Positions 12,163 through 61,882 of a stretch of 64,000 bases of DNA are shown piece by piece. Each line of letters begins with the position of its first letter. Positions within the stretch are counted from its first letter, which is position 1. Under the pieces are notes generated by a model. That model saw only the letters and a list, made by a program, of their open reading frames with translations, ran no database searches and was not told the DNA's origin. Origin of the DNA: an uncultured Acidobacteriota bacterium (GTDB lineage Bacteria > Acidobacteriota > Vicinamibacteria > Vicinamibacterales > CAVVIG01); contig CAVXGU010000004.1 of NCBI GenBank assembly GCA_963761615.1, forward strand, positions 543,537-607,536, written 5' to 3'. The position numbers and the translations under genes are program-made.

Positions 12163-12236
12163 GGGCGTGATCTTAACGACTCTCGGCTCCCGGCTCTAGG
12201 CCCTCGGCAGATCACCGCGTGACGGCGTGACCGGCC

Positions 12237-12362
12237 GAGAGCCGAGAGCCGAGAGCCGAGAGCCGAGAGCCGAGAGCCGAGAGCCGAGAGCCGAGAGCCG
12301 AGAGCCGAGAGCCGAGAGCCGAGAGCCGAGAGCCGAGAGCCGAGAGCCCAGAGCCGAGAGCC
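12237..12362 (+). repeat. Heptamer microsatellite, 18 tandem units of GAGAGCC (one CAGAGCC variant)
   Basis: Counted by hand: 126 nt of perfect 7-nt periodicity. It runs from just after ccggcc at 12236 to the stop codon (cta, 12362-12364) of the FAD-subunit gene. It lies about 75 nt upstream of the M3 peptidase start. Confidence 0.95.
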
Positions 12363-13351
12363 TATACGAACGACGCGACCGTTCTCTTGACGAGGTTCCT
12401 CGTGAGCGGCAGCTTGTAGGCGTTGTGGGCGAGGGGACGCGCGCCTTCGACGGCCGCGGCGCCGGCGCGCTCGGCGAGGGCCGGCGTGATCCGCTGGCCT
12501 TCGAGGATCCGCTCGACGGCCGGCAGCCGCCACGGGATCGGTGCGACGCCGCCCAGGACGAGACGGGCCCGGCGGCACACTGCGCCCTCGATCTCGAGGA
12601 CCGCGGCGGCGCTCACGACGGCGTGGGTCCACGCCTCGCGATCGAGCACCTTCTGGTAGGTGCTGCGGACGGCGCCGCCCGGCGCGGGGACGCGCACCGA
12701 CGCCAGCATCTCGCCCTCGCCGAGGACGTTCTCCCGGGCGGCGTTCTGGCTGGGCAGCAGGAAGAAGTCGGCCGCGGGCACGTCGCGATCGCCGCCGGGG
12801 CCGGCCAGATGGAAGGTCGCGCCCAGGGCCACGAGGGCCGGCGCCGTGTCGGAGGGATGCACGATGTAGCTCGGGCCGCCGCCGAAGATGGCGTGGAACC
12901 GGTTCTCGCCCGTGAACGAGAAGCACTGATTCCCTCCGGCCTTGTAGCAGGGGAAGCCGTTCCGATAGTACCAGCACCAGGGGCGCTGGCAGAGGTTGCC
13001 GGCGAGCGTGCCGACGTTGCGGATCTGCGGCGTCGCGACGCCGTCTGCGGCTTCGGCCAGCACGGCGTAGCGTCCGCGCACCTCGGCGTGACGGGCGAGC
13101 GCGTCGAGCGTGACCAGCCCGCCGATCTGGAGGCCGGCCGGGCCGGCGTCGACGCGGTCGAGCCCGGCCGCGCGCCCCATCGCCTTGAGGTTCACGACGA
13201 CGTCGGGCGTGACGAGCCGATCCTTCATCATCCCGAGCAGGTCGCTGCCGCCGCCGGCGAAGGCCGCCGCGCGGCCCTCGGCGCGCGCGCGGCGGGCGAG
13301 CGCGACGGCATCCGCGACGTCCTTCGGGTTGGCGTTGGTGAAGGCCTTCAT
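12362..13351 (-). CDS. Xanthine dehydrogenase/CO dehydrogenase-family FAD-binding subunit (PaoB/CoxM-like)
   Basis: C-terminal 329 codons of ORF 12362..15847, starting MKAFTNANPKDVADAV. Motifs AFAGGGSDLLGMMK and VGTLAGNLCQRP. The ATG (13351) overlaps the upstream stop as ATGA. Confidence 0.85.
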   Translation of the reverse strand: MKAFTNANPKDVADAVALARRARAEGRAAAFAGGGSDLLGMMKDRLVTPDVVVNLKAMGRAAGLDRVDAGPAGLQIGGLVTLDALARHAEVRGRYAVLAEAADGVATPQIRNVGTLAGNLCQRPWCWYYRNGFPCYKAGGNQCFSFTGENRFHAIFGGGPSYIVHPSDTAPALVALGATFHLAGPGGDRDVPAADFFLLPSQNAARENVLGEGEMLASVRVPAPGGAVRSTYQKVLDREAWTHAVVSAAAVLEIEGAVCRRARLVLGGVAPIPWRLPAVERILEGQRITPALAERAGAAAVEGARPLAHNAYKLPLTRNLVKRTVASFV

Positions 13352-16092
13352 GCCAGGGCTCCCAGGATCTTGTCGCGGGTGATCGGCAGGTCTTTCACGC
13401 GGCGGCCGATCGCGTTGTAGACCGCGTTGGCGACGGCGGCGACTGCCGGCACCTTGCCCGACTCGCCGATGCTCTTGGCGCCGTAGGGCCCGTAGCCATC
13501 GTCGGTCTCGATGAAGATGACGTCGACGTCCGGCGCGTCGAGGTGCGTCGACAGGCGCGCGCCGTAGAAGCCGGCGGTCAGCGGCTTGCCCGACCGGCGG
13601 TCGTAGATCAGATCCTCGTGGAGGGCCATGCCGATGCCCATGATCGCGCCGCCCTTGATCTGGCTGGCGGCGGTGAGCGGGTTCATCAGGCGCCCGGCGT
13701 CGTGCACGGCCAGATACTCGGTGACGTGCACGCGTCCGAGCTCCACGTCCGCCTCGACCTCGACGAAGTGCGCGCCGAAGGCGTCGCGCGTCTTGCCCTC
13801 GACGCGCTCGGTCGGGGTCTGGGAAGCGATGAGCACCGTGTCGCCGGTCGGCATGCCCTTGGCGGCGATCTGCTGCCTGAGATCCCTGGCCGCGGCGATA
13901 ACGGCGTCGCCGGTCTGGATGGTCGTGCGGCTGCCGGACTCGCCGACCGAATAGGGACAGGTGTCGGTGTCGCCCCAGACGAGATCGATCGACGAGAGGG
14001 GGACGCCGAGCGCTTCGGCCGCGATCATCGCCATCGTCGTCTTGGCGCCCGCGCCGACGTCGGTCACGCCGACGTGGACGGCGTAGCGCCCCCGCGCGTC
14101 GAGCTTGATGACTGCACTGCTCCGGCCGACGAGCGACCGGAACACCATGAACGCCATGCCGACGCCGCGCTTGACCGGCCCGGGATCGGCCCCGGGCTTG
14201 TGCCAGCGGCGCTGCCAGCCGAACGCCTCGGCGCCACGGCGGACGCACTGCTCGAGGGTGTAGTTGGTGAAGGGGACGCCGCCGCGCCCGGTCCGCGCCA
14301 TGTTCTTGAGGACGAACTCCACCGGGTCCAGACCCAGCTGGTCGGCCACCGAGTCCATCATCGACTGGATCCCGTAGAAGCCCTGCGGGAACTCCGGGCC
14401 GCGGAAGTTCGCCGAGACGGTCTTGTTGGTGTGGACGGGCCGGATCACGCTCGACGTGTTCGCGACCTGGTACAGGTCCATGCCGCCGATGGCGCCCGAG
14501 CTCTTGTGGTACGGCCCCATGCCGCTCACGCCGTCGAGCGCGATCGCCGTCAGCGTGCCGTCGTGCGTGACGCCCACGCGGTACTTCTGCGTCGTCGGCC
14601 AGCGGCCGTGCACGCCGACGAAGTCCTCGTAGCGCGAGAGCTCGAGCTTGACGGGCGAGCCCGCGGCTCTTGCGAGGGCGGCCGCGATCAGGTCGGCGTC
14701 CTGGTTCTGGTTCTTGTTGCCGAACCCGCCGCCCATGTAGTGGCAGATCACGCGCACGTTCTCGGCCGGGATCCCCAGATCGCGGGCCGTGTCGGTGCGG
14801 CAGTTGGAGATGCCCTGCGTCGGCGTGTAGAGCGTGAGCGAATCGCCGTCCCAGCTGGCCACCGCGGCGCGCGGCTCCAGCTGCGCGTTGTGCACGAACG
14901 TGGTCGTGAAGCGATCCTCGAACACGCGGTCCGCGGCGGCGAACCCGGCGCCGACGTCGCCCTCGGTGGCGACCATCGGCTGCGGCTCGTTCTTCGCGTC
15001 GAGCGCGAGGTTGCCCTCCGGCCAGACGAGCGGCGCACCCGGCTCGAGCGCGGCGTCGTGATCGAGCACGAAGGGGAGCGGCTCGTACTCGACGTCGATC
15101 AGATGCAGCGCGTCCTCGGCGATGTGCCGATCGACGGCGGCGACGGCGGCGACCGGCTCCCCGACGAAGCGCACGGGGTTGCTGAAGATGGGGCGCTTGT
15201 GCTTCGTGATCTTCTTGATCTGATCGCTGTACTGGCGGCCCCCGGCCACCGATCCGGCGCCCCAGACGATCTGCGTCGTCTCGTGCGTGAGGATCGCGCG
15301 CACGCCGGGCAGCGCCTGTGCGCGGCTCGTGTCGATGCGCCGGATCCGCGCGTGCGGGTGGGGGCTGCGCAGCACCTGCGCGTACAGCATCCCGGGCAGC
15401 TTCACGTCGTCGGTGTAGGCGGCCGCGCCGGTGGATCGCTCGACGGCGTCGATGCGCGGCGCGGGCCGGCCGACGACCGCCAGGGGCGGCAGTCCCTCGG
15501 TCGACGCGTGGGGCGGGGCGCTGCGGCCGCCTGTCGCGACGACGGCCTCGATGTAGCGGTTGTAGTTCGAGCAGCGGCAGAGATTGCCCGTCATCGCCGC
15601 GCGCGCCTCGGCGGGGGTCGGCGTCGGGTTGGCCGCGAGCAGCGCCGTGGCGGCCATCAGCTGGCCGGACGTGCAGAAGCCGCACTGCGGGCCGTCGTGC
15701 TCGACGAACGCGTCCTGCAGCGGGCTGAGGTGCCCCTGCGGGGCGAGCCCCTCGACGGTCTGGATCGATCGCCCGTCCACCCACACCGCCAGCTGGCTGC
15801 ACGAGTACACGGGCTTGCCGTCGAGGAGCACGGTGCAGGCGCCGCACTCGCCGCGGTTACAGCCGATCTTCGTGCCGGTCAGATCGAGCTGGTCGCGCAG
15901 GACTTCGGCGAGCGTCGATCGATCTTCGACCGCGATCTCCCGCGGCGAGCCGTTCACGGTCAGGCGAATCGTCGTCTGCGGGGCCGGCGGTGCGTCGGCG
16001 GCGCCGGCCGCGGCGACGTGCGGAAGCGTGGTGGCGACGGCGACGGCTGTTCCCGTGCGTTCGAGAAATGTCCGGCGGGAAATCGGTTCCAT
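13348..16092 (-). CDS. TAT-exported molybdopterin oxidoreductase with fused N-terminal [2Fe-2S] domain (PaoA::PaoC-like fusion)
   Basis: Start MEPISRRTFLERTGTAVAVA (twin-arginine signal). 2Fe-2S motifs CNRGECGACTV and CGFCTSGQ...CRCSNY. These are followed by ~700 aa of aldehyde oxidase/xanthine dehydrogenase Moco-binding domains. Confidence 0.85.
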   Translation of the reverse strand: MEPISRRTFLERTGTAVAVATTLPHVAAAGAADAPPAPQTTIRLTVNGSPREIAVEDRSTLAEVLRDQLDLTGTKIGCNRGECGACTVLLDGKPVYSCSQLAVWVDGRSIQTVEGLAPQGHLSPLQDAFVEHDGPQCGFCTSGQLMAATALLAANPTPTPAEARAAMTGNLCRCSNYNRYIEAVVATGGRSAPPHASTEGLPPLAVVGRPAPRIDAVERSTGAAAYTDDVKLPGMLYAQVLRSPHPHARIRRIDTSRAQALPGVRAILTHETTQIVWGAGSVAGGRQYSDQIKKITKHKRPIFSNPVRFVGEPVAAVAAVDRHIAEDALHLIDVEYEPLPFVLDHDAALEPGAPLVWPEGNLALDAKNEPQPMVATEGDVGAGFAAADRVFEDRFTTTFVHNAQLEPRAAVASWDGDSLTLYTPTQGISNCRTDTARDLGIPAENVRVICHYMGGGFGNKNQNQDADLIAAALARAAGSPVKLELSRYEDFVGVHGRWPTTQKYRVGVTHDGTLTAIALDGVSGMGPYHKSSGAIGGMDLYQVANTSSVIRPVHTNKTVSANFRGPEFPQGFYGIQSMMDSVADQLGLDPVEFVLKNMARTGRGGVPFTNYTLEQCVRRGAEAFGWQRRWHKPGADPGPVKRGVGMAFMVFRSLVGRSSAVIKLDARGRYAVHVGVTDVGAGAKTTMAMIAAEALGVPLSSIDLVWGDTDTCPYSVGESGSRTTIQTGDAVIAAARDLRQQIAAKGMPTGDTVLIASQTPTERVEGKTRDAFGAHFVEVEADVELGRVHVTEYLAVHDAGRLMNPLTAASQIKGGAIMGIGMALHEDLIYDRRSGKPLTAGFYGARLSTHLDAPDVDVIFIETDDGYGPYGAKSIGESGKVPAVAAVANAVYNAIGRRVKDLPITRDKILGALA

Positions 16093-16295
16093 GGATCCCC
16101 CCGCTGCAGGTGTGCGAGCGTGCGCCGAGTCTACGCTTCGGAACCAGAAGCCGCAACCCACCGGATCTCACCAGTTCTTGTGGTCCTCTCGCGTTTTCAT
16201 ACCTTATCTTGTGGGTCGCGACTTCGCCTCATCCGACAGATACTCTGCACGCGCGGAGGAATGTCATCGATTATCATGGCGCGCCCGGAGGTCCG

Positions 16296-18431
16296 ATGAG
16301 ACGAACGATCACTCGATTGGCGGCAGCGTGCGGGTTGCTGGCGGTGGCGGTGTGGGTGACGCCGACGCTGTCGGGCCAGCAGCAACAGCAGCGCATGCCG
16401 AGCACGGCGAACGGCGAATGGCCGATGTACACGGCGAGCCTCGATGGCAGCCGGTACTCGCCGCTCGACCAGATCAACGCCAGCAACTTCAACAACCTCG
16501 AGGTTGCCTGGACGTTCAGCACGAACAACCTGGGTCCGCGCCCCGAGAACAAGCTCGAGGGCACGCCGATCATGGTCAACGGCACGCTGTACGCGACGGC
16601 AGGCACCAGCCGTTCCGTCGTGGCGCTCGATCCGGCGACGGGCCAGCTCCTGTGGACCTATCACCTCGACGAAGGTGATCGCGCCTCGCGGTGGGCGCCG
16701 CGCCAGCTCTCGGGCCGCGGGCTGTCCTACTGGACCGACGGACACGGCGACGAGCGCGTCATCTACATCACGATCGGCTACCGGCTGGTCGAGCTGAACG
16801 CCAAGACGGGCCGTCCGATCGAGACCTTCGGCACGCACGGCATCCTCGACCTGAAGGTCGGCGCCTACATCGGCAACGACAAGCAGGTGGACCTCGAAAA
16901 GGCCGAGATCGGCGTGCACTCGACGCCGACCGTCGTCAACGACACGGTGATCGTCGGGTCGTCGATGTTCGAGGGGCTGGGCTACCGCTACAGCACGAAC
17001 GTCAAGGGGCTGGTGCGCGCGTTCGACGTGCGGACGGGCAAGCAGCTCTGGCGGTTCGACACGATCCCGAAGCCGGGTGAGTTCGGCAACGAGACGTGGG
17101 AGGAGGGTTCGTGGGAGTACTCGGGCAACACCGGCGTGTGGACGCAGATCAGCGTCGACCCGGCGAACAACCTCGTGTACCTGCCGGTCGAGACGCCGAC
17201 GATCGACGAGTATGGCGGCAACCGCCCCGGCAATAACCTGTTCGCCGAGAGCATCGTCGCCGTCGACCTGCATACCGGCCAGCGCAAGTGGTACTTCCAG
17301 CAGGTGCACCACGGATTGTGGGACTTCGACAACTCGTCGGCGTCGTTGCTGATCGACACGACGGTGAACGGGCAGCCGCGGAAACTCCTGGCGCAGCCGA
17401 CCAAGCAGGGCTGGCTGTACGTCTTCGACCGGATCACGGGCGAGCCGATCTGGCCGATTGTCGAGACGCCGGTTCCGCAGACGGACATCCCGGGCGAGAA
17501 GACGTCGCCGACGCAGCCGATTCCCTCCGCGCCGCCGCCCTACTCGCGGACGTTCATCAGCAAGGACGACGTCGTGGACTTCACGCCGGCCATCCACCAG
17601 CAGGCGCTGGACAACCTGAGCCACTACCGCTGGGAGCAGTCCCCGTTCGTGCCGCCGACCGGTCCGGACTCGAAGTGGGCCGGCGCGATCAACATCGGCA
17701 ACACGGCGGGCGGGATCAACTGGCCGGGCGCGGGCTTCGATCCCGAGACGGGCATCGCCTACATGCCCGCGAGCGACGCGAACGTGTCGATTGGTTCCTT
17801 CACCCGGGAAGAGTTCGAGCAGATCCGCGTCGAGAACCAGACCCAGCCGCGGAAGCCGCGCTGGGAGGCCGAGCCGAACTACGGGCTCCCCAGTGCCCGT
17901 GGCGGTGCGCCCGCGGCGGCAGGACGTGGGGCGGCCGGCCGTGGCGCCGCAGGACGGGGCGCGGGCGGCGGCGCGGCGGCCTTCCCGGGCGGCCGGGCCG
18001 GGCTGGGCGTCGGTCTCGACGGGCTCCCGATCGTCAAGCCGCCCTACGGCGTGCTCTCGGCGATCGACCTCAAGAACGGCACCTTGAAGTTCAGCGTGAC
18101 GCGCGGCAGCACGCCGGACAACATCAAGAACAACCCGCTGCTCAAGGGTCTGGACATTCCGAAGACCGGCCAGACCGGCAACGTGGGCGAACTGATCACC
18201 AAGACGGTCGTCGTCGTCGGTGAGCCGACGGAGACCACCCAGCCCGACGGCACGCGCGCCGCGAAGCTGGAAGCCTTCGACAAGAACAACGGGGCGGTGG
18301 TCGGCGCGGTGCTGATGCCGGGGCATCAGAGCGGGTCGCCGATGACCTACTCGGTCAACGGCAAGCAGTACATCATCGTGGCGGTCAGCGGCACCGACGG
18401 CGCCGAGTACGTCGCTTACACTCTTCCATAA
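16296..18431 (+). CDS. PQQ-dependent dehydrogenase (8-bladed beta-propeller quinoprotein), paralogue 1
   Basis: RBS GGAGG precedes ATG 16296, and a signal peptide is present. Recurrent propeller motifs: DPATGQLLWTY, DVRTGKQLWRF, DLHTGQRKWYF, DRITGEPIWPI. Contains a Gly/Arg/Ala-rich insert. About 90 percent identical to the next gene. Confidence 0.8.
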   Translation: MRRTITRLAAACGLLAVAVWVTPTLSGQQQQQRMPSTANGEWPMYTASLDGSRYSPLDQINASNFNNLEVAWTFSTNNLGPRPENKLEGTPIMVNGTLYATAGTSRSVVALDPATGQLLWTYHLDEGDRASRWAPRQLSGRGLSYWTDGHGDERVIYITIGYRLVELNAKTGRPIETFGTHGILDLKVGAYIGNDKQVDLEKAEIGVHSTPTVVNDTVIVGSSMFEGLGYRYSTNVKGLVRAFDVRTGKQLWRFDTIPKPGEFGNETWEEGSWEYSGNTGVWTQISVDPANNLVYLPVETPTIDEYGGNRPGNNLFAESIVAVDLHTGQRKWYFQQVHHGLWDFDNSSASLLIDTTVNGQPRKLLAQPTKQGWLYVFDRITGEPIWPIVETPVPQTDIPGEKTSPTQPIPSAPPPYSRTFISKDDVVDFTPAIHQQALDNLSHYRWEQSPFVPPTGPDSKWAGAINIGNTAGGINWPGAGFDPETGIAYMPASDANVSIGSFTREEFEQIRVENQTQPRKPRWEAEPNYGLPSARGGAPAAAGRGAAGRGAAGRGAGGGAAAFPGGRAGLGVGLDGLPIVKPPYGVLSAIDLKNGTLKFSVTRGSTPDNIKNNPLLKGLDIPKTGQTGNVGELITKTVVVVGEPTETTQPDGTRAAKLEAFDKNNGAVVGAVLMPGHQSGSPMTYSVNGKQYIIVAVSGTDGAEYVAYTLP

Positions 18432-18480: not shown

Positions 18481-18703
18481 CCGGCGGTGCGATCGCGCGA
18501 TTCCCGCCTGTTCCCGTCTTTTGTGCTCCCACCATCGAGTCAGCCGGACGCGGCCCGCGGCGCCGCGGCGGGCCCGCCAGGCGAGGCGCTATAATTTCCG
18601 AATCGACACACGGCGAAGTGGGGCCGATAGACCGTTTTTTCACAATTCGGACTCTGCGCGGAAAGCCGCGTAATCGCATATCATTGCGACCCTTGGAGGT
18701 CTA

Positions 18704-20857
18704 ATGGGACGAACGCTCACTCGATTGACGGTAGCGTGCGGGCTACTGGCGGCGGCAGTGTGGGGGATGCCGACGCTTTCCGGCCAGACGCAGCAGTCGT
18801 ACGCACCGAGCACTGCGAAAGGCGAGTGGCCGAGCTACACGGGCAGCCTGGATGGCAGCCGGTACTCACCGCTCGACCAGATCAACGCCAGCAACTTCAA
18901 GAACCTCGAGATTGCCTGGACGTTCAGCACCGATAACCTGGGCCCGCGCCCCGAGAACAAGCTCGAGGGCACGCCGATCATGGTCAACGGCACGCTGTAC
19001 GCGACGGCAGGCACCAGCCGTTCCGTCGTCGCGCTCAACCCGACGACCGGCCAGTTGCTGTGGGCCTACCATCTCGATGAGGGCGAGCGCGCCACGCGGT
19101 GGGCGCCCCGTCAGCTGTCGGGCCGCGGGCTGTCCTACTGGACCGACGGACACGGCGACGAGCGCGTCATCTACATCACGATCGGCTACCGGCTGGTCGA
19201 GCTGAACGCCAAGACGGGCCGTCCGATCGAGACCTTCGGCACGCACGGCATCCTCGACCTGAAGGTCGGCGCCTACATCGGCAACGACAAGCAGGTGGAC
19301 CTCGAAAAGGCCGAGATCGGCGTGCACTCGACGCCGACCGTCGTCAACGACACGGTGATCGTCGGGTCGTCGATGTTCGAGGGGCTGGGCTACCGCTACA
19401 GCACGAACGTCAAGGGGCTGGTGCGCGCGTTCGACGTGCGGACGGGCAAGCAGCTCTGGCGGTTCAACACGATCCCGAAGCCGGGCGAGTTCGGCAACGA
19501 GACGTGGGAAGAGGGCTCGTGGGAGTACACCGGCAACGTCGGCGTGTGGACGCAGATCAGCGTCGACCCGGCGAACAACCTCGTGTACCTCCCGGTCGAG
19601 ACGCCGACGATCGACGAGTACGGCGGCAACCGGCCCGGCAACGACCTGTTCGCCGAGAGCATCGTCGCCGTCGACCTGCACACCGGCCAGCGCAAGTGGT
19701 ACTTCCAGCAGGTGCACCACGGCCTGTGGGACGACGACAACTCGTCGGCGTCGCTCCTGATTGACACGTCGGTCAACGGGCAGCCGCGCAAGCTCCTGGC
19801 GCAGCCGACCAAGCAGGGCTGGCTGTACGTCTTCGACCGGATCACGGGCCAGCCGATCTGGCCGATCCCGGAGACGCCGGTTCCGCAGACCGACATCCCG
19901 GGCGAGAAGACGTCGCCCACGCAGCCGATTCCTTCGGCGCCTCCGCCCTACTCGCGGACGTTCATCAGCACCAACGACGTGGTCGACTTCACGCCGGCCA
20001 TCCACCAGCAGGCGCTCGACAACCTGAGCCACTACCGCTGGGAGCAGTCGCCGTTCGTGCCGCCGACCGGTCCGAACTCGAAGTGGGCTGGGGCGATCAA
20101 CATCGGCAACACCAGCGGCGGCATCAACTGGCCGGGCGCGGGCTTCGACCCGGAGACGGGCATCGCCTACATGCCGGCCAACGACTCGAACGTCAGCATC
20201 GGGAGCTTCACTGAAGAAGAGTTCGAAGCGATCCGTGTCGAGAACCAGACCCAGCCGCGGAAGCCGCGCTGGGAGGCCGAGCCGAACTACGGGCTGCCCA
20301 GCGCGCGTGGCGCCGAGGCGGGTCGCGGCGGTCGTGGCGCGGCGGGCCGCGGTGCGGCAGCCGGCCGCGGCGGTCGCGGTGCGGCGGCGGGAGGCCGTGG
20401 CGGGTTCGTCGGCGGTCGCGGCGGCCTCACGCAGGGCCTGGACGGTCTTCCGATCGTCAAGCCGCCCTACGGCGTGCTGTCGGCGATCGATCTGAAGGAC
20501 GGTAAGCTGCTGTTCTCGGTGCCGGCCGGTGACACGCCGGACAACATCAAGAACAACCCGCTGCTCAAGGGCCTCAACATCCCGAAGACCGGCCAGGGCG
20601 GCAACGTCGGCGAGCTGATCACGAAGACGGTCGTGGTCGTCGGCGAGCCGCAGGAGACCACCCAGCCCGACGGCACGCGCGCCGCGAAGCTGGTGGCCTA
20701 CAACAAGCAGACGGGCGCGGTCGAGGGCGAAGTGCTGATGCCGGCGCATCAGAGCGGGTCGCCGATGACCTACTCGATCAACGGCAAGCAGTACATTGTC
20801 GTCGCGGTGAGCGGCAACGGTGGCGGCGGCCGGTACGTCGCCTACAGCCTGCCCTAG
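18704..20857 (+). CDS. PQQ-dependent dehydrogenase, paralogue 2
   Basis: RBS GGAGG, signal peptide, and the same propeller motifs as paralogue 1. Colinear along the full length. Confidence 0.8.
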   Translation: MGRTLTRLTVACGLLAAAVWGMPTLSGQTQQSYAPSTAKGEWPSYTGSLDGSRYSPLDQINASNFKNLEIAWTFSTDNLGPRPENKLEGTPIMVNGTLYATAGTSRSVVALNPTTGQLLWAYHLDEGERATRWAPRQLSGRGLSYWTDGHGDERVIYITIGYRLVELNAKTGRPIETFGTHGILDLKVGAYIGNDKQVDLEKAEIGVHSTPTVVNDTVIVGSSMFEGLGYRYSTNVKGLVRAFDVRTGKQLWRFNTIPKPGEFGNETWEEGSWEYTGNVGVWTQISVDPANNLVYLPVETPTIDEYGGNRPGNDLFAESIVAVDLHTGQRKWYFQQVHHGLWDDDNSSASLLIDTSVNGQPRKLLAQPTKQGWLYVFDRITGQPIWPIPETPVPQTDIPGEKTSPTQPIPSAPPPYSRTFISTNDVVDFTPAIHQQALDNLSHYRWEQSPFVPPTGPNSKWAGAINIGNTSGGINWPGAGFDPETGIAYMPANDSNVSIGSFTEEEFEAIRVENQTQPRKPRWEAEPNYGLPSARGAEAGRGGRGAAGRGAAAGRGGRGAAAGGRGGFVGGRGGLTQGLDGLPIVKPPYGVLSAIDLKDGKLLFSVPAGDTPDNIKNNPLLKGLNIPKTGQGGNVGELITKTVVVVGEPQETTQPDGTRAAKLVAYNKQTGAVEGEVLMPAHQSGSPMTYSINGKQYIVVAVSGNGGGGRYVAYSLP

Positions 20858-21807: not shown

Positions 21808-22698
21808 GTGTCGATTGACGGCGCGCCCGTCCTCGAGCTCACCGACGCCGTCGTCGTCAAGGACGGGGCGCGCGCGCTCGACGGTCTGACGCTCACGATC
21901 CGGACCGGCCAGCACACGGCCATCGTCGGACCCAACGGCTCCGGCAAGACGACGCTCGTCAATCTGCTGACCCACCACGACCGGGCGCTCGCGCGGCCGG
22001 GCGGCCCAGCGCCCGTGCGGGTGTTCGGGGGAGAGCGCTGGGACGTCTTCGACCTGCGGTCGCGCCTGGGCGTCGTGTCCGCCGACCTCCATCAGCGGTT
22101 CGTCGCGGGGAACAGCAACGGACGCATCCGGGGCGAGGACGCCGTGGTGTCGGCGTTCTTCTCGAGCCACGGCGTCCAGGCGCACGTGCGCGTGACGGCG
22201 GCCATGCGCCGGCGCGCCGGCGAGGCGCTCGACCGCGTCGGCGCCAGCCACCTCGCGGACCGCACGATGGACCGGATGTCGACGGGGGAGGCGCGTCGCA
22301 TCCTGATCGCCCGCGCGCTGGTCCGCGAGCCGGCCGCCCTGGTGCTCGACGAGCCCACGGCGGGTCTCGACGTGGTGGCGCGCCACCGCTTTCTCCACGA
22401 TGTGAACCGCGTGGCGGCGGAAGGGACCACGCTCGTGCTGGTCACCCACCACGTGGAGGAAATCGTGCCCGAGATCGACCGGGTGGTGCTGATCAAGGCA
22501 GGCCGGGTGGCGGCCGACGGACCCAAGGCCGCGATGCTCGCCGACGGCCCGCTGAGCGACGCCTTCGGCGCGCCGATCACCGTCGGCCGCGACGGCGCCC
22601 ACTACTTCATGCGGGCCTACGGCGCTTTCGAGATCGGTGTCGCCCCGAGATCGGTGTCGCCGCGGACCTTCAGGTCCGCCGATGCGGAGCCGACCTGA
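21808..22698 (+). CDS. ABC transporter ATP-binding protein (stand-alone, ModF-like)
   Basis: Walker A GPNGSGKTT, signature MSTGEARR, Walker B LVLDEPTAGLD, H-loop VTHH. The last ~25 codons and the stop are encoded by repeat copy A. Confidence 0.8.
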   Translation: MSIDGAPVLELTDAVVVKDGARALDGLTLTIRTGQHTAIVGPNGSGKTTLVNLLTHHDRALARPGGPAPVRVFGGERWDVFDLRSRLGVVSADLHQRFVAGNSNGRIRGEDAVVSAFFSSHGVQAHVRVTAAMRRRAGEALDRVGASHLADRTMDRMSTGEARRILIARALVREPAALVLDEPTAGLDVVARHRFLHDVNRVAAEGTTLVLVTHHVEEIVPEIDRVVLIKAGRVAADGPKAAMLADGPLSDAFGAPITVGRDGAHYFMRAYGAFEIGVAPRSVSPRTFRSADAEPT

Positions 22699-22734
22699 AG
22701 GTCGGCCGCCACAGCGAAACGAAGACGGCTCGAG
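22617..22734 (+). mobile_element. MITE-like repeat, copy A (twin-hairpin element)
   Basis: ctacggcgctttcgagatcgg...gcggaccttcaggtccgc...gccgacctgaaggtcggc...cgaaacgaagacggctcgag. Alignable by eye to copies at 24763-24863 (reverse) and 49759-49876. Confidence 0.7.
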
Positions 22735-22749
22735 CCGGGCGCACGGGCC

Positions 22750-23121
22750 TCAGAACGACGCGATCAACAGACAGGCCCAGCCGGCGAGGAACGCGACGCC
22801 GCCGATCGGCGTGATCGCGCCGAGGATGGATACGCCGGACACGGCGAGCGCGTAGAGGCTGCCGGAGAAGAGCACGATGCCCGCGGTGAAGGACCAGCCC
22901 GCGGCGGGCAGCAGCCGGCTGTCGACGCGCCCGATGAGCGCCGCGACCGCGAGGATCGCCAGCGCGTGATACATCTGGTATCGCACGCCGGTTTCGAAGA
23001 CGGCGAGCATGTCGGGGGAGAGCCGCCCGCGCAGGCCGTGCGCCGCGAACGCACCGAGCCCGACGCCCGTCGCGCCCGCGAGCGCGCCGACGAAGAGAAA
23101 TGTTCGAGTCATAGACAACAC
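22750..23121 (-). CDS. DUF423-family small membrane protein
   Basis: Four predicted TM helices. LGAFAAHGL motif typical of DUF423/YgdD. An alternative start is MTRTFLF (23112). Confidence 0.7.
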   Translation of the reverse strand: MLSMTRTFLFVGALAGATGVGLGAFAAHGLRGRLSPDMLAVFETGVRYQMYHALAILAVAALIGRVDSRLLPAAGWSFTAGIVLFSGSLYALAVSGVSILGAITPIGGVAFLAGWACLLIASF

Positions 23122-23169
23122 GGCATGATATCAGCGAACCGGAGCACACCGGGAACCTGGGAGGTCCAC

Positions 23170-23598
23170 ATGATGGCACGACGGCAGTTGCTGGGCGGCG
23201 CCGTACTCGGTGGATGGCTCGGCGCCGAGGCGCTGCAGGCCCGTCCCGCAGCGGCGGCTCAACTGGACGACGAGGCGCGACGCATCGAGGACATCGTCGG
23301 CAAGCTGGGCGCGCTGCGCGACGCGATGGTCTCGCAGAGCGACTTCCACGAGATTGCGGCCGTCCGTGACCAGCAGAAGCAGTTCCTCCGAGCCCAGGGC
23401 AAGTTCCCCGACTTCATCGAAGTCGGCACCGACGTCTGGTTCGACGTCTACGACTGGCACTTGCGCAACCGGCTGGTTCCGACTGTGGGCACCGACGCCA
23501 GCGGCCGCTACACGATCACGCTGCTGACGACGACCGTGATCATGCGTCCCGACATGCCGCAGTCACGCTACGTCGGGCTGCCCTACGATGCGCGTTGA
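23170..23598 (+). CDS. Small exported protein of unknown function (TAT-like signal)
   Basis: RBS GGAGG 7 nt before ATG 23170. N-terminus MMARRQLLGGAVLGGWLGAEALQARPAAAA. Balanced composition thereafter. Overlaps the next ORF by 11 nt. Confidence 0.55.
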   Translation: MMARRQLLGGAVLGGWLGAEALQARPAAAAQLDDEARRIEDIVGKLGALRDAMVSQSDFHEIAAVRDQQKQFLRAQGKFPDFIEVGTDVWFDVYDWHLRNRLVPTVGTDASGRYTITLLTTTVIMRPDMPQSRYVGLPYDAR

Positions 23599-24766
23599 CG
23601 GGGCCGAGGCGTCTGGCCCCTACAATAGCCGGATGACCGAGGCCTATCCGGCGGCCCGCGCCGCGGCGCCGCGCATCCGGGCGCACTTCGTCCGGCACCT
23701 CGAGGCGGCACGCGATCGCGGCCTCTCGCCGTCGACGGTCGTGCCCTCGGTCGACGCGCTCGAGACGATCCTGAACGCGGCGTTCTGGGGCAGCCTGCGG
23801 CGCGAAGAAGGCTACGTCCCGAAGATCTCGCTCGCGCTCGTGTCCCCGACGCAGGCGCCGGCGTCGCTGCTCTTCGAGCGGCCGCTGGCGCTCGGCCCCG
23901 TGGCGCTGGCGCGTGTCGCGCCGGCGGTCGAGCGTGCCGGTGTGCATCTCGGCGTCTGGCCCGGCGGCGACGGCCTCGCCGTCTGGGGGACCACGCGCGC
24001 GATCCCGACGTACTGCCTGGTCGTCGAAGTCGCCGAGCCGGGGCTCATCGTGGTGAAGCACCAGCGCGGGGCGGAGGACTCCGGCAAGTTCGTCAACATC
24101 GCCGTGCTCGAGGGCGACGAGGTCAAGCTGATCGACGAGGACGCGTCGCGTCGCCCCGAGTGTCCACCGATTCTCGCGGCCATGCTGGGGGCGGGCGATC
24201 GCGACGATCGCGCCGGCGTCAACGTGCCGGTGCAGATCGCGGTATCGATGCGCGCCCATCGCCGGGGCGGCATCCTGCTCGTCGTGCCGTCGGATGGCGA
24301 CGCCTGGCGTGAATCGATCGTGAAGCCGATCGCCTACGCGGCGTCTCCGCCCTTTGCCGAGCTCGCGGACCTGATGGCGGCGGCCCCGGGGGAGTATCCG
24401 CACCGCTGGTACGAGGCCGTGGCCGGCGCGGTGGACGTGCTCGGCGGCCTCACGGCCGTCGACGGCGCCGCGATCATGACCACCCGCTACCATGTCCTCG
24501 CCTTCGGCGCGAAGATCGCGAGGCGCGACGCCGCACCGCAGGTCGAGCGGGTCGTGGCGACCGAACCGGTCGAGGGCCGCCCGGCGATCGAGCTGCACCC
24601 GACCCTGCTCGGCGGCACGCGCCACCTGTCGGCGGCGCAGTTCGTCCAGGATCAGCGCGACGCCGTCGCGATGGTGGCGTCGCAGGACGGGCGCTTCACG
24701 ATCTTCGCGTGGTCGCCCTCGGAGGGCATGGTCCACGCCCACCGGGCGGAAGCCCTGTTGCTCTAG
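23588..24766 (+). CDS. Diadenylate-cyclase-like (DisA_N/DAC) protein with an uncharacterised N-terminal sensor-type domain
   Basis: The C-terminal ~150 aa carry RGGILLVVPS, AVDGAAIM (DGA motif) and LGGTRHLSAAQF (GTRHxxA motif, RHL instead of RHR). An alternative start is MTEAYPAA at 23633. Confidence 0.6.
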   Translation: MRVDGAEASGPYNSRMTEAYPAARAAAPRIRAHFVRHLEAARDRGLSPSTVVPSVDALETILNAAFWGSLRREEGYVPKISLALVSPTQAPASLLFERPLALGPVALARVAPAVERAGVHLGVWPGGDGLAVWGTTRAIPTYCLVVEVAEPGLIVVKHQRGAEDSGKFVNIAVLEGDEVKLIDEDASRRPECPPILAAMLGAGDRDDRAGVNVPVQIAVSMRAHRRGGILLVVPSDGDAWRESIVKPIAYAASPPFAELADLMAAAPGEYPHRWYEAVAGAVDVLGGLTAVDGAAIMTTRYHVLAFGAKIARRDAAPQVERVVATEPVEGRPAIELHPTLLGGTRHLSAAQFVQDQRDAVAMVASQDGRFTIFAWSPSEGMVHAHRAEALLL

Positions 24767-24863
24767 CGCGGTTTTCGTTTCGCTGTAGCGGCCGACCTTC
24801 AGGTCGGCTTCGCATTGGCGGACCTGAAGGTCCGCGGCTACCCCGATCTCGAAAACGCCGTAG
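24763..24863 (-). mobile_element. MITE-like repeat, copy B (reverse orientation)
   Basis: Fills the whole spacer between the convergent DAC-like gene and dut. Its terminal ctag supplies the TAG stop of the DAC-like gene. Confidence 0.7.
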
Positions 24864-24865
24864 CC

Positions 24866-25315
24866 TCAGTGTCCCGTATGTCCGAAGCCGCCGGAGCCCC
24901 TGGGTGTCTCCGGAAGCTCCGCGACGATCTGCCACTCCACCTGCGCCACCGGAGCGATGACGAGCTGGGCGATCCGCATCCCCGAGGTGACGATGAACGG
25001 CTCGGGACCGTGATTCACGAGCAGCACCTTCACCTCGCCGCGGTAGTCGCTGTCGATCGTTCCAGGCGCGTTCAGCACGGTGACGCCGTGGCGGCTGGCC
25101 AGGCCCGATCGCGGCCGCACCTGGCCCTCGAACCCCGGGGGAATCGCGATCGCAAACCCGCAGCCGATGAGCTGCCAGCGTCCGGGCTCGAGACGCACGG
25201 GGGCGTCGATGGCGGCGGGCAGATCCATGCCGGCGGCTCGCTCCGAGAAGTACTCCGGGAGCGGAGCGTCCGCCGATCCGGCGAAACGGGTGATGGGTAC
25301 GCGCAGCGTCGGCAT
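24866..25315 (-). CDS. dut: dUTP diphosphatase
   Basis: 149 aa. Motifs AAGMDL, RSGLASRHGV, GTIDSDYRGEV, and a C-terminal RGSGGFGHTG. Confidence 0.92.
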   Translation of the reverse strand: MPTLRVPITRFAGSADAPLPEYFSERAAGMDLPAAIDAPVRLEPGRWQLIGCGFAIAIPPGFEGQVRPRSGLASRHGVTVLNAPGTIDSDYRGEVKVLLVNHGPEPFIVTSGMRIAQLVIAPVAQVEWQIVAELPETPRGSGGFGHTGH

Positions 25316-47063: not shown

Positions 47064-48128
47064 TCAGCAGATTCTCGGCAGCTGTTCGCCCGTCAGCATG
47101 TCCACGATCCGCGTGGCGCCGATGCGGCTCGTCATCGTGACCAGGCCCGTCGTCTCGGCGCCGACGGCGCCGATCACCGCGGCGTCCGGACAGCGGGAAT
47201 CGCGCCGGAGGCGCTCGACGGTCCGGCCGGCGTCGGCGGCCGCCACGAAGGCGACGAACCGGCCCTCGTTGGCGACGTAGAGGGGATCGAAGCCGAGGAT
47301 CTCGCAGGCGCCGCGCACGTCCTCGCGCACGGGAATCCGGCGCTCCTCGACGTGGATCGACCGGCCGGACGCCTCCGCGATCTCGGCGAGGGCGCTCGCG
47401 AGGCCCCCGCGCGTCAGGTCGCGCAGGCAGTGCACCTCGATCCCGTCCTCGAAGAGGGCCATCACCGGCTCCACCAGCGGCGCACAGTCGCTCTCGATGG
47501 ACGACTCGAACTCGAGGTTCTCGCGCACCGCCATGATCGCCATGCCGTGGCGCCCGAGGTCGCCGCTCACGATCACGGCGTCGCCGTCGCGCACGCGCGC
47601 CGGCGACACGGGCGCCGGCGCCACGACGATGCCGATGCCGGCGGTGTTGACGAAGATGCCGTCGCCCTTGCCCCGATCGACCACCTTCGTGTCGCCGGTC
47701 ACCAGCTCGACGCCGGCCTCCGCGGCGGCCCGCTGCATCGACTGGACGACCCGCCAGAGCGTCTCCATCGGCAGGCCCTCCTCGAGGATGAAGCCGGCGC
47801 TCAGGAATCGCGCCCGGGCGCCGCACATCGCCAGGTCGTTCACCGTGCCGTTGACGGCGAGCGCGCCGATGTCTCCGCCCGGAAAGAACAGCGGGCGGAC
47901 CACGTACGAGTCGGTCGTGAACGCGAGGCGTCCGCCGCCGACGTCGAAGACGGCGCCGTCGTGGCGCGTCTCGAGACGCGTCGTGAAGGCCGGCAGGAAC
48001 ATCTGCTCGATGAGCTGGTGCATCAGATGTCCGCCGCCGCCGTGGGCGAGGAGCACGTGCGGGTAGCGCGCGATCGGGATCGGGCAGGAGAACCCGGCCG
48101 CCTCGTCCTTCGAGCGTTCAGGCGCCAT
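47064..48128 (-). CDS. hypE: Hydrogenase maturation protein HypE
   Basis: AIR-synthase-like fold ending in the HypE signature C-terminus ...GEQLPRIC. Start set at MAPERSKDE (48128), overlapping the hypD end. Confidence 0.9.
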
Positions 48129-49230
48129 GGACCCGCTCGTGCGCCTGCAGGCGGCGATAGCGGTAGTACGCGGCGCAGGCACCCTCCGACGAGACCATCG
48201 TCGCGCCGAGCGGATGCTCCGGTGTGCAGCGCGTGCCGAAGGCCGGGCAGTCGTGCGGCTTCGTCAGGCCCTGGAGCACGAGGCCGCTGATGCACTCGCT
48301 GGGCTCGTCCTCGGTGAGCTCGGCGACGCCGAACCGGCTCTCGGCGTCGTACGCGGCGTAGCGATCGGTCAGCGCGAGGCCGCTCTGCGGGATCTCGCCC
48401 ACGCCGCGCCACTTGCGCGGCACGATCCGGAACACCTCGCGCACGAGACGCTGCGCCGGCCGGTTGCCGTCCCGGCTGACCGCCCGCGCGTACTGGTTCT
48501 CGACTTCCGCGCGCCCGTCCTCGAGCTGCTTCACGCACAGGTAGACGCCCTGCAGCAGGTCCACCGGCTCGAACCCGGTCACCACGATCGGCACGCGATA
48601 GCGGCGTGCGATCGGCTCGTACTCCGTGTAGCCCATGACCGTGCAGACGTGTCCGGCCGCGAGGAACCCCTGCACGCGGTTGTTGGGCGAGGAGAGGATC
48701 GCCTCCATGGCCGGCGGCACGAGGACGTGCGAGACGAGCAGCGAGAAGTTCGTGACGCCCTGGGCATCCGCCTGATAGACCGCCATCGCGTTGGCCGGTG
48801 CGGTCGTCTCGAAGCCGACGGCGAAGAAGACGACCTCGCGGGACGGATGCGCGCGGGCGATGGCGACGGCGTCGAGCGGCGAGTAGACGATCCGGACGTC
48901 GCCGCCCCCGGCCTTGACCGAGAGCAGATCGCGCGTCCGCCCGGGCACGCGCAGCATGTCGCCGAACGAGCAGAAGATCACGCCGGGCCGCGAGGCGATC
49001 TCGATCGCTTTCTCGATCAGCTCGAGCGGGGTGACGCACACGGGACAACCCGGACCGTGCACGAGCGTGATGCCGTCGGGCAGCAGGTCGTCGACGCCGA
49101 ACTTGACGATCGAGTGCGTCTGGCCGCCGCAGACCTCCATCAGCGTCCAGGGGCGCGTGGTGATCCTCGCCAGCGCCCGGGAGAAGGCGCCCGCCGCGTC
49201 GGCGTCGCGGTATTCGTCGATGTACTTCAT
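48118..49230 (-). CDS. hypD: Hydrogenase maturation protein HypD
   Basis: MKYIDEYRD..., [20 protein letters not shown] motifs. Confidence 0.92.
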
Positions 49231-49487
49231 GACGCGTCTCCGTCGACGTCGAGCTCGGCGAGCTCGCCCATCTCCCGGAGATAGTCGAACACCTGATGCG
49301 CCTCGGCTTCGTCGATCGTGTTGATCGCGAAGCCGACGTGCACCAGCACGTAGTCGCCGACCCGGGCGTCGGGCACGTACGCCAGGTTCACCTGCTTGAC
49401 GATGCCCGAGAAGTCCACGCGTCCCGTGCGCAGCAGCGGGTCGTCACCCTGGATGCTCACGATCTTCCCGGGAACGGCTAGGCACAT
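49227..49487 (-). CDS. hypC: Hydrogenase maturation chaperone HypC/HupF family
   Basis: N-terminal [10 protein letters not shown] with the essential Cys2. 86 aa. Confidence 0.9.
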
Positions 49488-49508
49488 GATGGCCTCGCAT
49501 TCATCACT

Positions 49509-49715
49509 GGCGGCGGGGCCCCACCCCCGCCGCGAACTGACGCCGATGCTCGCCCTCGGATTCGCAGGTCCTCGGGCTCGCCTGGCCGCAGGCGCCGGCT
49601 TCTCTCACGGGCGGCGGGGCCGCGCCCCCGCCGCGAACTGACGTCGATGCTCGCCCTCGGATTCGCAGGTCCTCGGGCTCGCCTGGCCGCAGGCGCCGGC
49701 TTTTCTCCCCGGCGG
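49509..49715 (+). repeat. Tandem direct repeat, two ~101-bp units plus a degenerate partial third
   Basis: The unit ggcggcggggcc..ccccgccgcgaactgacg.cgatgctcgccctcggattcgcaggtcctcgggctcgcctggccgcaggcgccggctt.tctc occurs at 49509 and again at 49610, with about 6 differences by eye. Confidence 0.9.
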
Positions 49716-49758
49716 CCGGGTCCCGCCCAAGCCCATCAAACCTGTCCACCCGCCCACC

Positions 49759-49876
49759 CTACAGCGTTTTCGAGATCGATGTCGCCCCGCGATCGGTGTA
49801 GCCGCGGACCTTCAGGTCCGCCAATGCGAAGCCGACCTGAAGGTCGGCCGGTACATCCAAACGAAAACCGCTCTAG
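49759..49876 (+). mobile_element. MITE-like repeat, copy C
   Basis: ctacagcgttttcgagatcg...gcggaccttcaggtccgc caatgcgaa gccgacctgaaggtcggc...cgaaaaccgctctag. Its terminal ctag contains the hypF stop codon on the minus strand. Confidence 0.7.
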
Positions 49877-52218: not shown

Positions 52219-52889
52219 TTCCGGCGGCCGCGTGTCGAAGCCAGCTCGTCGAGGCGCGCCAGCCAGTCGTCCATGCCGGCGCCCGTCTTCGCGGAGACTT
52301 CGAGGATCTCGAGGCCGGGGCGCACCTCGTGGATGTTGTGGCGCGCCGCGGCGCGATCGAACTCGACGGCGGCGGCGAGGTCCGTCTTCGTCACGATCGC
52401 CAGGTCGGCCGTGTTGAAGATCGTCGGGTACTTGAGCGGCTTGTCCTCGCCTTCGGTGACCGAGAGGAGCACCACGCGGACGTGCTCGCCGAGGTCGTAG
52501 CTCGACGGGCAGACGAGATTGCCGACGTTCTCGAGGAAGAGCCGATCCAGCGTTTCGAGGTCCCAGCCTTCCTCTTCGAGCGCCCGCTCGATCATCTCGG
52601 CCTCGAGATGGCAGACGGTGCCGGTCGTGATCTGGCGCACGCGCGCGCCGGTCCCGGCGAGACGCCTGGCGTCGTTGTCCGTCGCGAGATCGCCCACGAG
52701 GACGCCCGCGCGCCGCCGGTCGGCGAGCCGCTCCAGCGTCTTCTGCAGGAACGTCGTCTTGCCGGCGCCCGGGCTCGACACCAGGCTCGCGACGAAGACG
52801 CCGGCCGCATCGAACCGCGCGCGCAGCGCACGGGCGAGCAGGTCGTTCTTCTTGAGGATGCCCTCGCGGACCTCAACGATGCGCGGCAC
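52215..52889 (-). CDS. hypB: Hydrogenase nickel-incorporation GTPase HypB
   Basis: P-loop SSPGAGKTTFL, ENVGNLVCP, TKTDL. No His-rich N-terminal stretch. Confidence 0.9.
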   Translation of the reverse strand: MPRIVEVREGILKKNDLLARALRARFDAAGVFVASLVSSPGAGKTTFLQKTLERLADRRRAGVLVGDLATDNDARRLAGTGARVRQITTGTVCHLEAEMIERALEEEGWDLETLDRLFLENVGNLVCPSSYDLGEHVRVVLLSVTEGEDKPLKYPTIFNTADLAIVTKTDLAAAVEFDRAAARHNIHEVRPGLEILEVSAKTGAGMDDWLARLDELASTRGRRK

Positions 52890-53235
52890 GGTCCTCCACC
52901 TCCAGCGCGGTCAGCTCGAGCTCCCGGCCGCCGGTCACGTCGGGCGTCGCCGCGCCGCAGACCGGGCAGTGCAGGTGCTGTGCGCTGATGATCTCACGGT
53001 CCTCGCCGCACTGCGGGCAGAACGCGGCGAGCGGCACGTCCTCGATCTCCAGCCGGGCGCCGGCGATTGCGGTCCCCTGGGCCGCCAGGTCGAAGCAGAA
53101 GAGCAGGGCGTCCTTGACGACGCCCGAGAGCGGGCCGAGGCGCACGTAGACGGCGTCGACGCGGACGTCGCCGAGGCCGCGCGCCCGGTCGCTGGCCGCC
53201 TCGACGAGCGCCAGCGCGACCGACAGCTCATGCAC
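52873..53235 (-). CDS. hypA: Hydrogenase nickel-insertion protein HypA
   Basis: MHELS N-terminus, and a zinc site CPQCG...CPVCG. Confidence 0.9.
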   Translation of the reverse strand: MHELSVALALVEAASDRARGLGDVRVDAVYVRLGPLSGVVKDALLFCFDLAAQGTAIAGARLEIEDVPLAAFCPQCGEDREIISAQHLHCPVCGAATPDVTGGRELELTALEVEDRAAHR

Positions 53236-53256
53236 GGCCGGTGCTCCGGGACCGGG

Positions 53257-53658
53257 TCATGGGTGCGCTCCGAGCGATAGGACGTACGCCGTGAGATCCC
53301 AGGCGTCCGTCTGGCTCAGGGCCCTCCACGCCGGCATCGGCGTCCCGGCGAGACCCTCGCGGATCGCGAAGAAGACGCGTCGGGGCGACGTGGACGCGCG
53401 CCACGCCGCGTCGGTGAAGTCGCGCGGCGGCTGGCTGAGGCCCTCGCGGCGGACGCCGTGCCCGTCGCCGCGCGCGCCGTGGCAGAGCGCGCAGTGCGCG
53501 AGGAACAGCACGCGGCCCCGCGCCCGGGCTGCCGGCGAGTCCAGCGTGGCGGACGGCACCGCGATCCGGCGGTACGCCGCCGGAAGGTCGCGGTCAGGAC
53601 CGCCGCAGGCCGGGCAGGAGAGGATCATCAGCAGTGCGCTCAGCGCGAGCGGTTTCAT
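53257..53658 (-). CDS. Mono-haem c-type cytochrome lipoprotein
   Basis: Lipobox LMILSC. A single CALCH haem motif, with a distal GTPMPAW Met candidate. Embedded between hupD and hypA; overlaps the hupD 3' end by 65 nt. Confidence 0.7.
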   Translation of the reverse strand: MKPLALSALLMILSCPACGGPDRDLPAAYRRIAVPSATLDSPAARARGRVLFLAHCALCHGARGDGHGVRREGLSQPPRDFTDAAWRASTSPRRVFFAIREGLAGTPMPAWRALSQTDAWDLTAYVLSLGAHP

Positions 53659-57678: not shown

Positions 57679-57774
57679 CAGCTCCTCCGTCGATCGACCG
57701 GGTCCGTCGATCGCGCGAGGGAAGCGCGCGGCGGCCGCGCCCCTCCGCCTTTCCGGCACCGGTGGCGCGCGGAC

Positions 57775-57789
57775 GCAACTCCCGTGCCC
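57775..57789 (-). promoter_or_regulatory. Candidate sigma-54 (-24/-12) promoter for the hydrogenase operon
   Basis: The minus strand reads GGGCAC GGGAG TTGC, which fits GGCAC-N5-TTGC (GG-N10-GC), about 97 nt upstream of the hupS ATG. Confidence 0.4.
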
Positions 57790-57923
57790 GTACCGCTCGC
57801 GGCGCGGGTCAGGTTGGAGTCATGCGCCCTGCCGGAAAATCGGCGCGCGGTGGAGATCTGGAGATATCGTGATTGGGGTGATGGGGTGATGGGAACCTGG
57901 AGGCTCGCGGGGGCGCCCGAACC

Positions 57924-59156: not shown

Positions 59157-59251
59157 TACGGCGAGCCCAGCTCGTGTATACAGTTGGAGCAGCAAGGGAT
59201 ACGGGGACGGTTAGTTTGAGCACCAATGTTTTGACCTGCAAGGAGGGTGTC

Positions 59252-61869: not shown

Positions 61870-61882
61870 CGAAGGAGCCGTG

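Follow-up and report, generated by a model that had tools for sequence, protein, structure and literature searches.

Among described systems, the closest to the repeat reported here are the repetitive extragenic palindromic (REP) sequences that bear a GTAG tag and the REPtrons that combine them with a gene for a REP-associated tyrosine transposase (RAYT). GTAG REPs, head-to-head (HH) heterodimers, i.e., dimers arranged with their tags outside, REP-RAYT units and REP termini that give TAG stops have all been described (PMC3733652), as have REP dimers nested in longer palindromes of Anabaena variabilis and Halothiobacillus neapolitanus (PMC3733652). REPINs are mobile REP doublets (PMC3337134, PMC3116915), and the substrate of RAYTs is single-stranded DNA in which the REP is folded; the enzymes require the GTAG tag and cut C|T on either side of the REP, with GTAG serving as a guide (PMC8266576). 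From Acidobacteria, the only tyrosine transposases reported are ones flanked by terminal inverted repeats (PMC3733652), and in the literature searched we found neither a description of REP-type repeats in Vicinamibacterales nor a match to the GCSGACC / TTCA stem-loop that characterizes the present family. Here, we analyzed a 64-kb stretch (hereafter, the window) of contig CAVXGU010000004.1 from an uncultured bacterium of the Vicinamibacterales (Acidobacteriota), in which an imperfect palindrome of 101–118 bp occurs three times. Sequence comparisons place a dimer of GTAG-tagged REPs at its center, and the element is probably a REPIN-like mobile repeat; in one copy, the reading frame of an ABC transporter ATPase runs into the element and gains a C-terminal tail.

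In tag, linker, stem and loop the window family is like the known GTAG REPs and REPtrons, the nearest being Marinomonas REPtron Mb (GTAG, 2 nt, a short stem and a 4-nt loop) and GTAG-1/2 of Di Nocera et al. 2013. The likeness extends to HH dimers that are mostly heterodimers, to locations in gaps between convergent or co-directional genes, to termini that supply TAG and to inverted REPs around RAYT genes, whereas the very short spacer, mostly 7–9 nt (range 5–11), and the host group, Acidobacteriota (Vicinamibacterales), set the family apart. With the REPINs of Pseudomonas fluorescens (Bertels and Rainey 2011) it has in common two inverted REPs that form one long hairpin, apparent copying as a unit, the expectation of a single-copy RAYT partner and a decay that leaves singlets. 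Unlike in REPINs, its REPs are central in the palindrome, with the GTAG tags pointing outward, about 9 nt between the units and conserved arms outside; moreover, its replication as a unit is deduced from one shared indel and not from population analysis. A nested REP dimer, TA ends and an outer palindrome never seen without the dimer also characterize GTAG-15 of Anabaena variabilis, which lies in TATAGGA...TCCTATA, and CGTC-1 of Halothiobacillus neapolitanus. However, the arm sequences are unrelated, and the window family combines at least four arm variants with one terminus. The fixed asymmetry of the two REP units recalls the Y/Z heterodimers of the bacterial interspersed mosaic elements (BIMEs) of E. 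coli, but E. coli REPs are longer and have bulged stems, and BIMEs carry integration host factor (IHF) or L motifs between the units. What is novel is this family and its host group; REP termini at stop codons and palindromic repeats turned coding were already known in other bacteria. For the Acidobacteriota (Vicinamibacterales), an abundant and rarely cultured soil group, the analysis documents a family of REPs/REPINs and a candidate clade of RAYTs to go with it.

Anatomy of the palindromic element

Alignment and repeat finding located copies A (22617–22734) and C (49759–49876) on the plus strand, both in a long form of 118 bp, and copy B (24763–24863) on the minus strand in a short form of 101 bp. 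Pairwise identities are 88% for A and C, 93% for B and C and 90% for A and B, and repeat finding resolved palindrome arms of 46 nt around a center of 9 nt. An 18-nt hairpin pattern has 9 matches in the window at up to three mismatches, compared with 0.19 expected, and none of 100 shuffles reaches 9, which bears out the three occurrences reported in a preliminary description of this DNA. A chance palindrome, or a local duplication without any family behind it, would agree with the small copy number in the window and with nothing else; in view of the excess of matches, the compensatory stem changes, the 17 loci of a genome scan and the at least 120 loci of a metagenome scan described below, we give this explanation practically no credence. 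In this respect the earlier view of a dispersed, non-autonomous palindromic element, similar to a miniature inverted-repeat transposable element (MITE), was sound. The left arms of copies A and C, which sit 27 kb apart, contain a 17-bp tandem duplication (cgagatcggtgtcgccc twice; 22629–22662, plus strand, in copy A) that copy B is without. Because this derived duplication is common to A and C, and because arms and REPs are conserved together, the element may have been copied as a unit.

The two hairpins of the element are GCGGACC-TTCA-GGTCCGC (hairpin 1) and GCCGACC-TGAA-GGTCGGC (hairpin 2). They had been described as reverse complements of each other, which is accurate overall but not at one compensated pair, where G:C is changed to C:G. 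An outward GTAG tag stands two bases off each stem, which gives the anatomy of GTAG-tagged REPs arranged as an HH dimer. Each 24-nt unit comprises an unpaired GTAG, two linker nucleotides, a perfect stem of 7 bp and a 4-nt loop. In copy B, unit 1 (24818–24841, minus strand) is GTAG-CC-GCGGACCTTCAGGTCCGC and unit 2 (24785–24808, plus strand) is GTAG-CG-GCCGACCTTCAGGTCGGC. Copy C has GTAG-CC-GCGGACCTTCAGGTCCGC as unit 1 (49798–49821, plus strand), and its unit 2 (49831–49854, minus strand) carries, in the minus-strand reading, the tag GTAC for GTAG, a single change. Unit 1 of copy A (22656–22679, plus strand) begins with the degenerate tag GTCG, followed by CC and the hairpin GCGGACC-TTCA-GGTCCGC, and unit 2 (22689–22712, minus strand) reads GTGG, again degenerate, CG and GCCGACC-TTCA-GGTCGGC on the minus strand. 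Copy B consequently retains both tags and copy C one of the two, and in copy A both have been altered by mutation (GTCG, and CCAC in place of CTAC). The element begins with CTAC at the left and ends with CTAG at the right, the latter being changed to CGAG in copy A, which is decayed at this terminus as well as in its tags.

An alignment was made of 40 clean HH dimers from at least 30 contigs. Conservation of the GTAG/CTAC tags exceeds 90% in this set, though they were absent from the first search pattern, and GTAG-CC at the left and AG-CTAC at the right are likewise conserved outside the searched core at the 17 loci of the genome scan. Heterodimers prevail nearly throughout, with one GTAG-CC-GCGGACC unit and one GTAG-CT-GCCGACC unit. 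Under a model of two small hairpins 98.6% of the positions are paired, a percentage inflated by the collection of the dimers with hairpin-containing patterns, and the informative part is therefore the compensatory changes, with both sides altered in 5 pairs (15 cells) and a covariation score of 0.106 compared with 0.043 in shuffles (0 of 500 reach 0.106). A model of a single long helix pairs 84.5%, with mismatches at three positions in nearly every sequence. As the two-hairpin model fits the 40 dimers better than the long helix, the alignment indicates that the conserved structural unit is the individual REP hairpin, and that the center is an HH heterodimer of GTAG-tagged REPs with a spacer of about 9 nt and with NN-CTAC after the second hairpin. 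In folding energetics, the whole element forms one long hairpin, with z scores of −5 to −7 for copies B and C (−5.5 and −6.0, respectively, as DNA); copy A as a unit folds weakly (z about −2).

Outside each REP is an arm of 25–45 nt, whose sequence differs between lineages, with at least four variants. All of these share the terminus (Y)TA-GAGCG-N-TTTC, and terminus and REP are conserved together. The terminus forms an inverted repeat at the two ends of the element, imperfect in the window copies, just as the preliminary description had noted. The arm variant of the window (…TTTTCGAGATCG…) recurs at two other loci (L128 and L138), where the left end is CTAG. The left end is CTAC in all three window copies, and this base is therefore carried by the element.

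Distribution of the family and its relation to RAYTs

A genome scan for the core pattern, with one genome per species, returned 17 loci in five Acidobacteriota metagenome-assembled genomes (MAGs), 12 of them from one fragmented Vicinamibacterales MAG. A metagenome scan with the single-unit pattern added at least 120 loci, which include singlets, HH dimers with spacers of 5–11 nt and head-to-tail arrays, on contigs mostly of 62–71% G+C. A strict unit pattern classes 114 of the 180 REP units at these loci as singlets, and head-to-tail arrays are frequent too, both of which speak against the doublet, as opposed to the single REP, being what replicates. Arrays of 2–4 REP units with spacers of 13–20 nt, unlike the HH dimers of the window, were observed in L036, L039, L045, L093 and L095. 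Copies are dispersed and lie mainly outside genes, and the family is abundant in sequences from soil Acidobacteriota (Vicinamibacterales). Eight of the metagenome contigs have a G+C content of 41–53% (L101, L062, L075, L040, L027, L022, L122 and L053) and still contain the 24-nt, G+C-rich REP. The REP class, and in L040 also its RAYT, is thus not confined to high-G+C Acidobacteriota.

The contig L040 contains a 163-aa open reading frame (ORF) with GTAGCCGCCGACCTT(C/T)AGGTCGGC on either side in inverted orientation, and the downstream copy overlaps the ORF stop codon. The encoded protein matches the NCBIfam model NF047646 REP_Tyr_transpos with 113.6 bits (cutoff 80) and also Pfam Y1_Tnp. A RAYT homologue in L146 has the same layout and a REP identical to that of L040, and the RAYTs of L142, L147 and L148 are flanked by GTAG-NN-(G)GCGACC-TTCA-GGTCG(G/C)C. 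These five are metagenomic or MAG contigs, none from the genome of the window. Since REPs of the same class flank RAYT genes, the REP class of the window can be assigned to a RAYT clade. The layout recurs around the related RAYTs of L143 and L145, here with GTAG-NN-GAGGCC-TT(C/T)A-GGCCTCC. In these two contigs an AMP-binding gene lies upstream, and 36 bp of its 3′ end are directly repeated on both sides of the RAYT (2230–2266 and 2830–2866 in L143; 2470–2510 in L145), and the stop of the RAYT itself lies in the loop of the downstream REP (TAAA or TGAA), like the ATPase stop of the window. Among the RAYT homologues P0168, P0180, P0223, P0233 and P0145, several have in-frame REP-like peptides (…SLKASPT…) within the catalytic domain, and KRSGGALAPSDN occurs four times in P0145.

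In our view the element is likely to be a non-autonomous mobile repeat of the REPIN kind that depends on a RAYT for its mobilization. In this scenario, the RAYT, an HUH/Y1 enzyme, would copy the element by recognizing each REP hairpin with its GTAG tag in single-stranded DNA. The cut sites would be C|TAC at the left and C|TAG at the right terminus, and joining of the cut element to a C|TAG target would yield the observed junctions with no need for a duplication. Both the mobilization by a RAYT in this genome and the exact cut sites are inferred. RAYT mobilization is favored because the REPs and their tags are the most conserved parts, occur without the arms and flank RAYT genes. Several points weigh against it, in addition to the inflated pairing percentage mentioned above. 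No RAYT was found in the 64-kb window, either with a hidden Markov model of at least 50 RAYTs searched against the six-frame translation or with regular expressions, as one would expect of a single-copy gene and a sample of this size. The search for REPtrons yielded none with the exact GCGGACC unit; those found have GCCGACC, GCGACC or GGCGACC stems. The flanks of the L040 RAYT are weakly similar to the outer arms, the alignment being suggestive and the repeat finder detecting 27 nt of inverted repeat. Finally, TA at both ends together with a Y-TA-R target looks identical to a TA duplication of the IS630/Tc1 type, and filled and empty sites fit both models.

This last point leads to a second explanation, in which the element is a classical MITE derived from an insertion sequence with a DDE transposase (IS630/Tc1-mariner-like), moved through its GAGCG-N-TTTC repeats with TA duplication at CTAG/YTAR, and the REP dimer is a passenger or a secondary insertion. 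Elements of the IS630 type prefer CTAG and duplicate TA. In agreement with this, the element has imperfect terminal inverted repeats, TA is present at both ends in all intact copies, the flanks rebuild the target C-TA-G for the three window copies and T-TA-G or C-TA-A elsewhere, and the terminus is conserved across arm variants. Correia elements of Neisseria and other TA-duplicating MITEs resemble the element in their length of about 100–150 bp, in having inverted repeats at their termini and TA at either end, and in folding into an RNA hairpin; they differ in that they are without a GTAG-REP core and without an association with RAYTs. MITEs constrain only their termini, whereas here the REP cores and GTAG tags are the most conserved parts in all lineages and are also present alone, in tandem arrays and on both sides of RAYT genes. 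Cutting at C|T by a RAYT gives the same junctions without duplication, and the TA may equally belong to the element under such cutting. A 4-bp duplication is contradicted by the ends themselves, which are TTAG and CTAG in L001 and L052 and CTAC and CTAG in all three window copies. The IS630/Tc1- or IS5-like partner envisaged in the preliminary description is not what the data point to, as the hairpins are GTAG-tagged REPs and REPs of the same class flank RAYT genes, and a non-exhaustive search of the window and 0.8 Mb of flanking loci found neither a longer element with these termini nor a DDE transposase. Paired termini 0.12–4 kb apart were likewise absent from the 0.8 Mb, apart from the coincidental ends of copies A and B around syntenic host genes, and the scanned ORFs of the window included no transposase. 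Overall, we regard the MITE as an unlikely origin. A composite transposon formed by the inverted pair of copies A and B (22618–24862) was rejected because the enclosed genes are syntenic in relatives without the elements. An integron attC site was dismissed because the sequence lacks the GTTRRRY core, as was a CRISPR because it lacks regular spacing.

A third explanation is that the element chiefly serves the host as a structured element, i.e., a stabilizer of mRNA 3′ ends, a terminator without a U-tract or an operon regulator, and that its position is kept by function. All copies lie at gene 3′ ends, A and B between convergent genes and C in the hyp operon; copy B separates the convergent DACNV-domain and dUTPase genes, and copy C has the hypF stop on one side and the hypC start on the other. 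Folding of the element as RNA gives a hairpin with an energy between −52 and −58 kcal/mol and a z score between −5.5 and −7, and roles of REPs in mRNA stabilization and termination have been reported (PMC3733652). However, the scans point the other way. The element is without a U-tract, having TTTT upstream of the hairpins and AAAA downstream; a scan of 22300–25200 for intrinsic terminators and promoters returned no promoter and 0 terminator-like sites; and Rfam gave no match at the gathering threshold in the whole window and only a chance-level hit (E = 0.19) in an E-value scan of 22400–25000. Moreover, the sites are empty in close relatives with intact genes, which makes the element dispensable there, copy A is decaying, and function accounts for retention but not for the spread of a family with shared derived indels. 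A primary host role therefore seems to us quite improbable, more so than a MITE, although the RNA hairpin may play an additional role for the host at 3′ ends.

Insertion at stop codons and the extended ABC ATPase

Each of the three window copies has one end on the stop codon of a gene. The TAG stop of the DACNV-domain gene (23588–24766) at 24764–24766 (plus strand) lies within the terminal CTAG of copy B, and the orthologue of this gene in L021 has the same ...LLL-TAG ending. Likewise, the TAG stop of hypF (49873–52218, minus strand) at 49873–49875 (minus strand) lies within the terminal CTAG of copy C. With the CTAG end toward the gene, as in these two cases, the TAG stop is kept. With the CTAC end toward the gene, a Tyr codon (TAC) takes the place of the stop in this genome, as in copy A, whose CTAC end is located at the native stop position of the ATPase.

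The coding sequence of the ABC transporter ATPase extends from 21808 to 22698 on the plus strand (296 aa; Pfam ABC_tran, 2.4e-23). Its last native residue is Ala, encoded at 22615–22617. As the stop position is read as TAC in copy A, translation would continue over an element-encoded extension (22618–22698, plus strand) of 26 codons (YGAFEIGVAPRSVSPRTFRSADAEPT) to a TGA at 22696–22698, inside the loop of hairpin 2. The preliminary description had correctly recognized that the frame enters the element and that the last residues and the stop are element-encoded; it had also proposed that the insertion replaced the native 3′ end of the gene, and here the comparison with relatives leads to a different conclusion. 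The closest orthologues among the matches listed, P0001 (91% identical) and P0002 (86%), end in ...YYFMRA*, at the residue just before the element. The contig that encodes P0001 (L018) is syntenic with the window and its site is empty, the ATPase stop (TAA) being followed by 16 nt and the stop of a convergent DUF423 gene; in the window, the DUF423 stop is 15 nt away from the end of the element. The site is also empty in a second relative, L021, and these two syntenic relatives contain zero REP units in 4.7 kb (L018) and 20.8 kb (L021). Orthologues that end at the element boundary, together with the syntenic empty site, indicate that the native C-terminus is complete and that the stop was merely displaced, with a tail appended and nothing replaced.

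Most ATPase homologues are 266–275 aa long among the 120 matches listed, and a REP-derived tail was found in none of these 120 other homologues. Tail length at the C-terminus varies naturally in this ATPase family. The pair of filled and empty sites provides an unusually clean case of a REP-type element on a stop codon that lengthens a protein. For annotation, such elements explain odd C-terminal tails and called ORFs with peptides like TFRSA or DLKV. The palindromic elements of Rickettsia (RPEs) are comparable in that a palindromic repeat joins a coding frame without destroying the protein, but RPEs insert in frame within genes, whereas the window element, inserted on the stop codon, lengthens the protein at its C-terminus.

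The insertions of the window lie at sites of the form C-TA-G, which in this genome of 70% G+C are often TAG stop codons, and the terminal TAG is the in-frame stop of a genuine gene also in L001, L057, L111 and L138. In single units, the TAG within the GTAG tag is the in-frame stop of a long ORF lying upstream in 11 of 19 cases, compared with about 6 expected, a weak signal. Two apparent read-throughs elsewhere (L111, minus strand, and L132) were rejected because the upstream ‘ORFs’ have a G+C content of about 0.5 at third and about 0.87 at first codon positions and are not genes. As a tentative extension, which we hold to be doubtful, the family may insert preferentially at C|TAG stop codons, with orientation deciding the outcome, i.e., one end regenerating TAG and the other, in lineages with CTAC at that end of the master copy, erasing the stop and appending a hairpin-encoded peptide; it would at the same time have kept a nearly identical 24-nt REP together with a RAYT clade across hosts from 41% to 71% G+C. 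If so, the element would be a systematic generator of C-terminal protein extensions, and the REP and its RAYT would either have been conserved together, as substrate and enzyme, with unusual strictness or have spread horizontally.

Surroundings of the copies and other repeats

Between the DACNV-domain and dUTPase genes, where the window has copy B, the relative L021 carries about 1 kb of tandem repeats of about 150 bp (12850–13790), and this intergenic site seems to accumulate repeats. Copy C is surrounded by a hydrogenase maturation cluster (hypE-like, hypD, hypC, hypF and hypB; 47064–57819) that adjoins the large subunit gene of a NiFe hydrogenase. The hypF-hypC intergenic region additionally contains, next to copy C, a 101-bp unit in two tandem copies that are 95% identical (49504–49705).

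Elsewhere in the window, heptamer arrays are present at 12223–12362, (GAGAGCC)n, and at 61793–61870, (CAGAGCC)n. Two pairs of large direct repeats are 83–89% identical, one comprising 59232–60242 and 62762–63769 and the other 16287–18311 and 18695–20734, the latter pair corresponding to paralogous PQQ-dehydrogenase genes. Within these paralogues, at 16847–16860 and 19255–19268, lies the 14-nt palindrome CGACCTGAAGGTCG, which equals the core of REP unit 2 and is without a GTAG tag; it is probably coding sequence passed on through the gene duplication.

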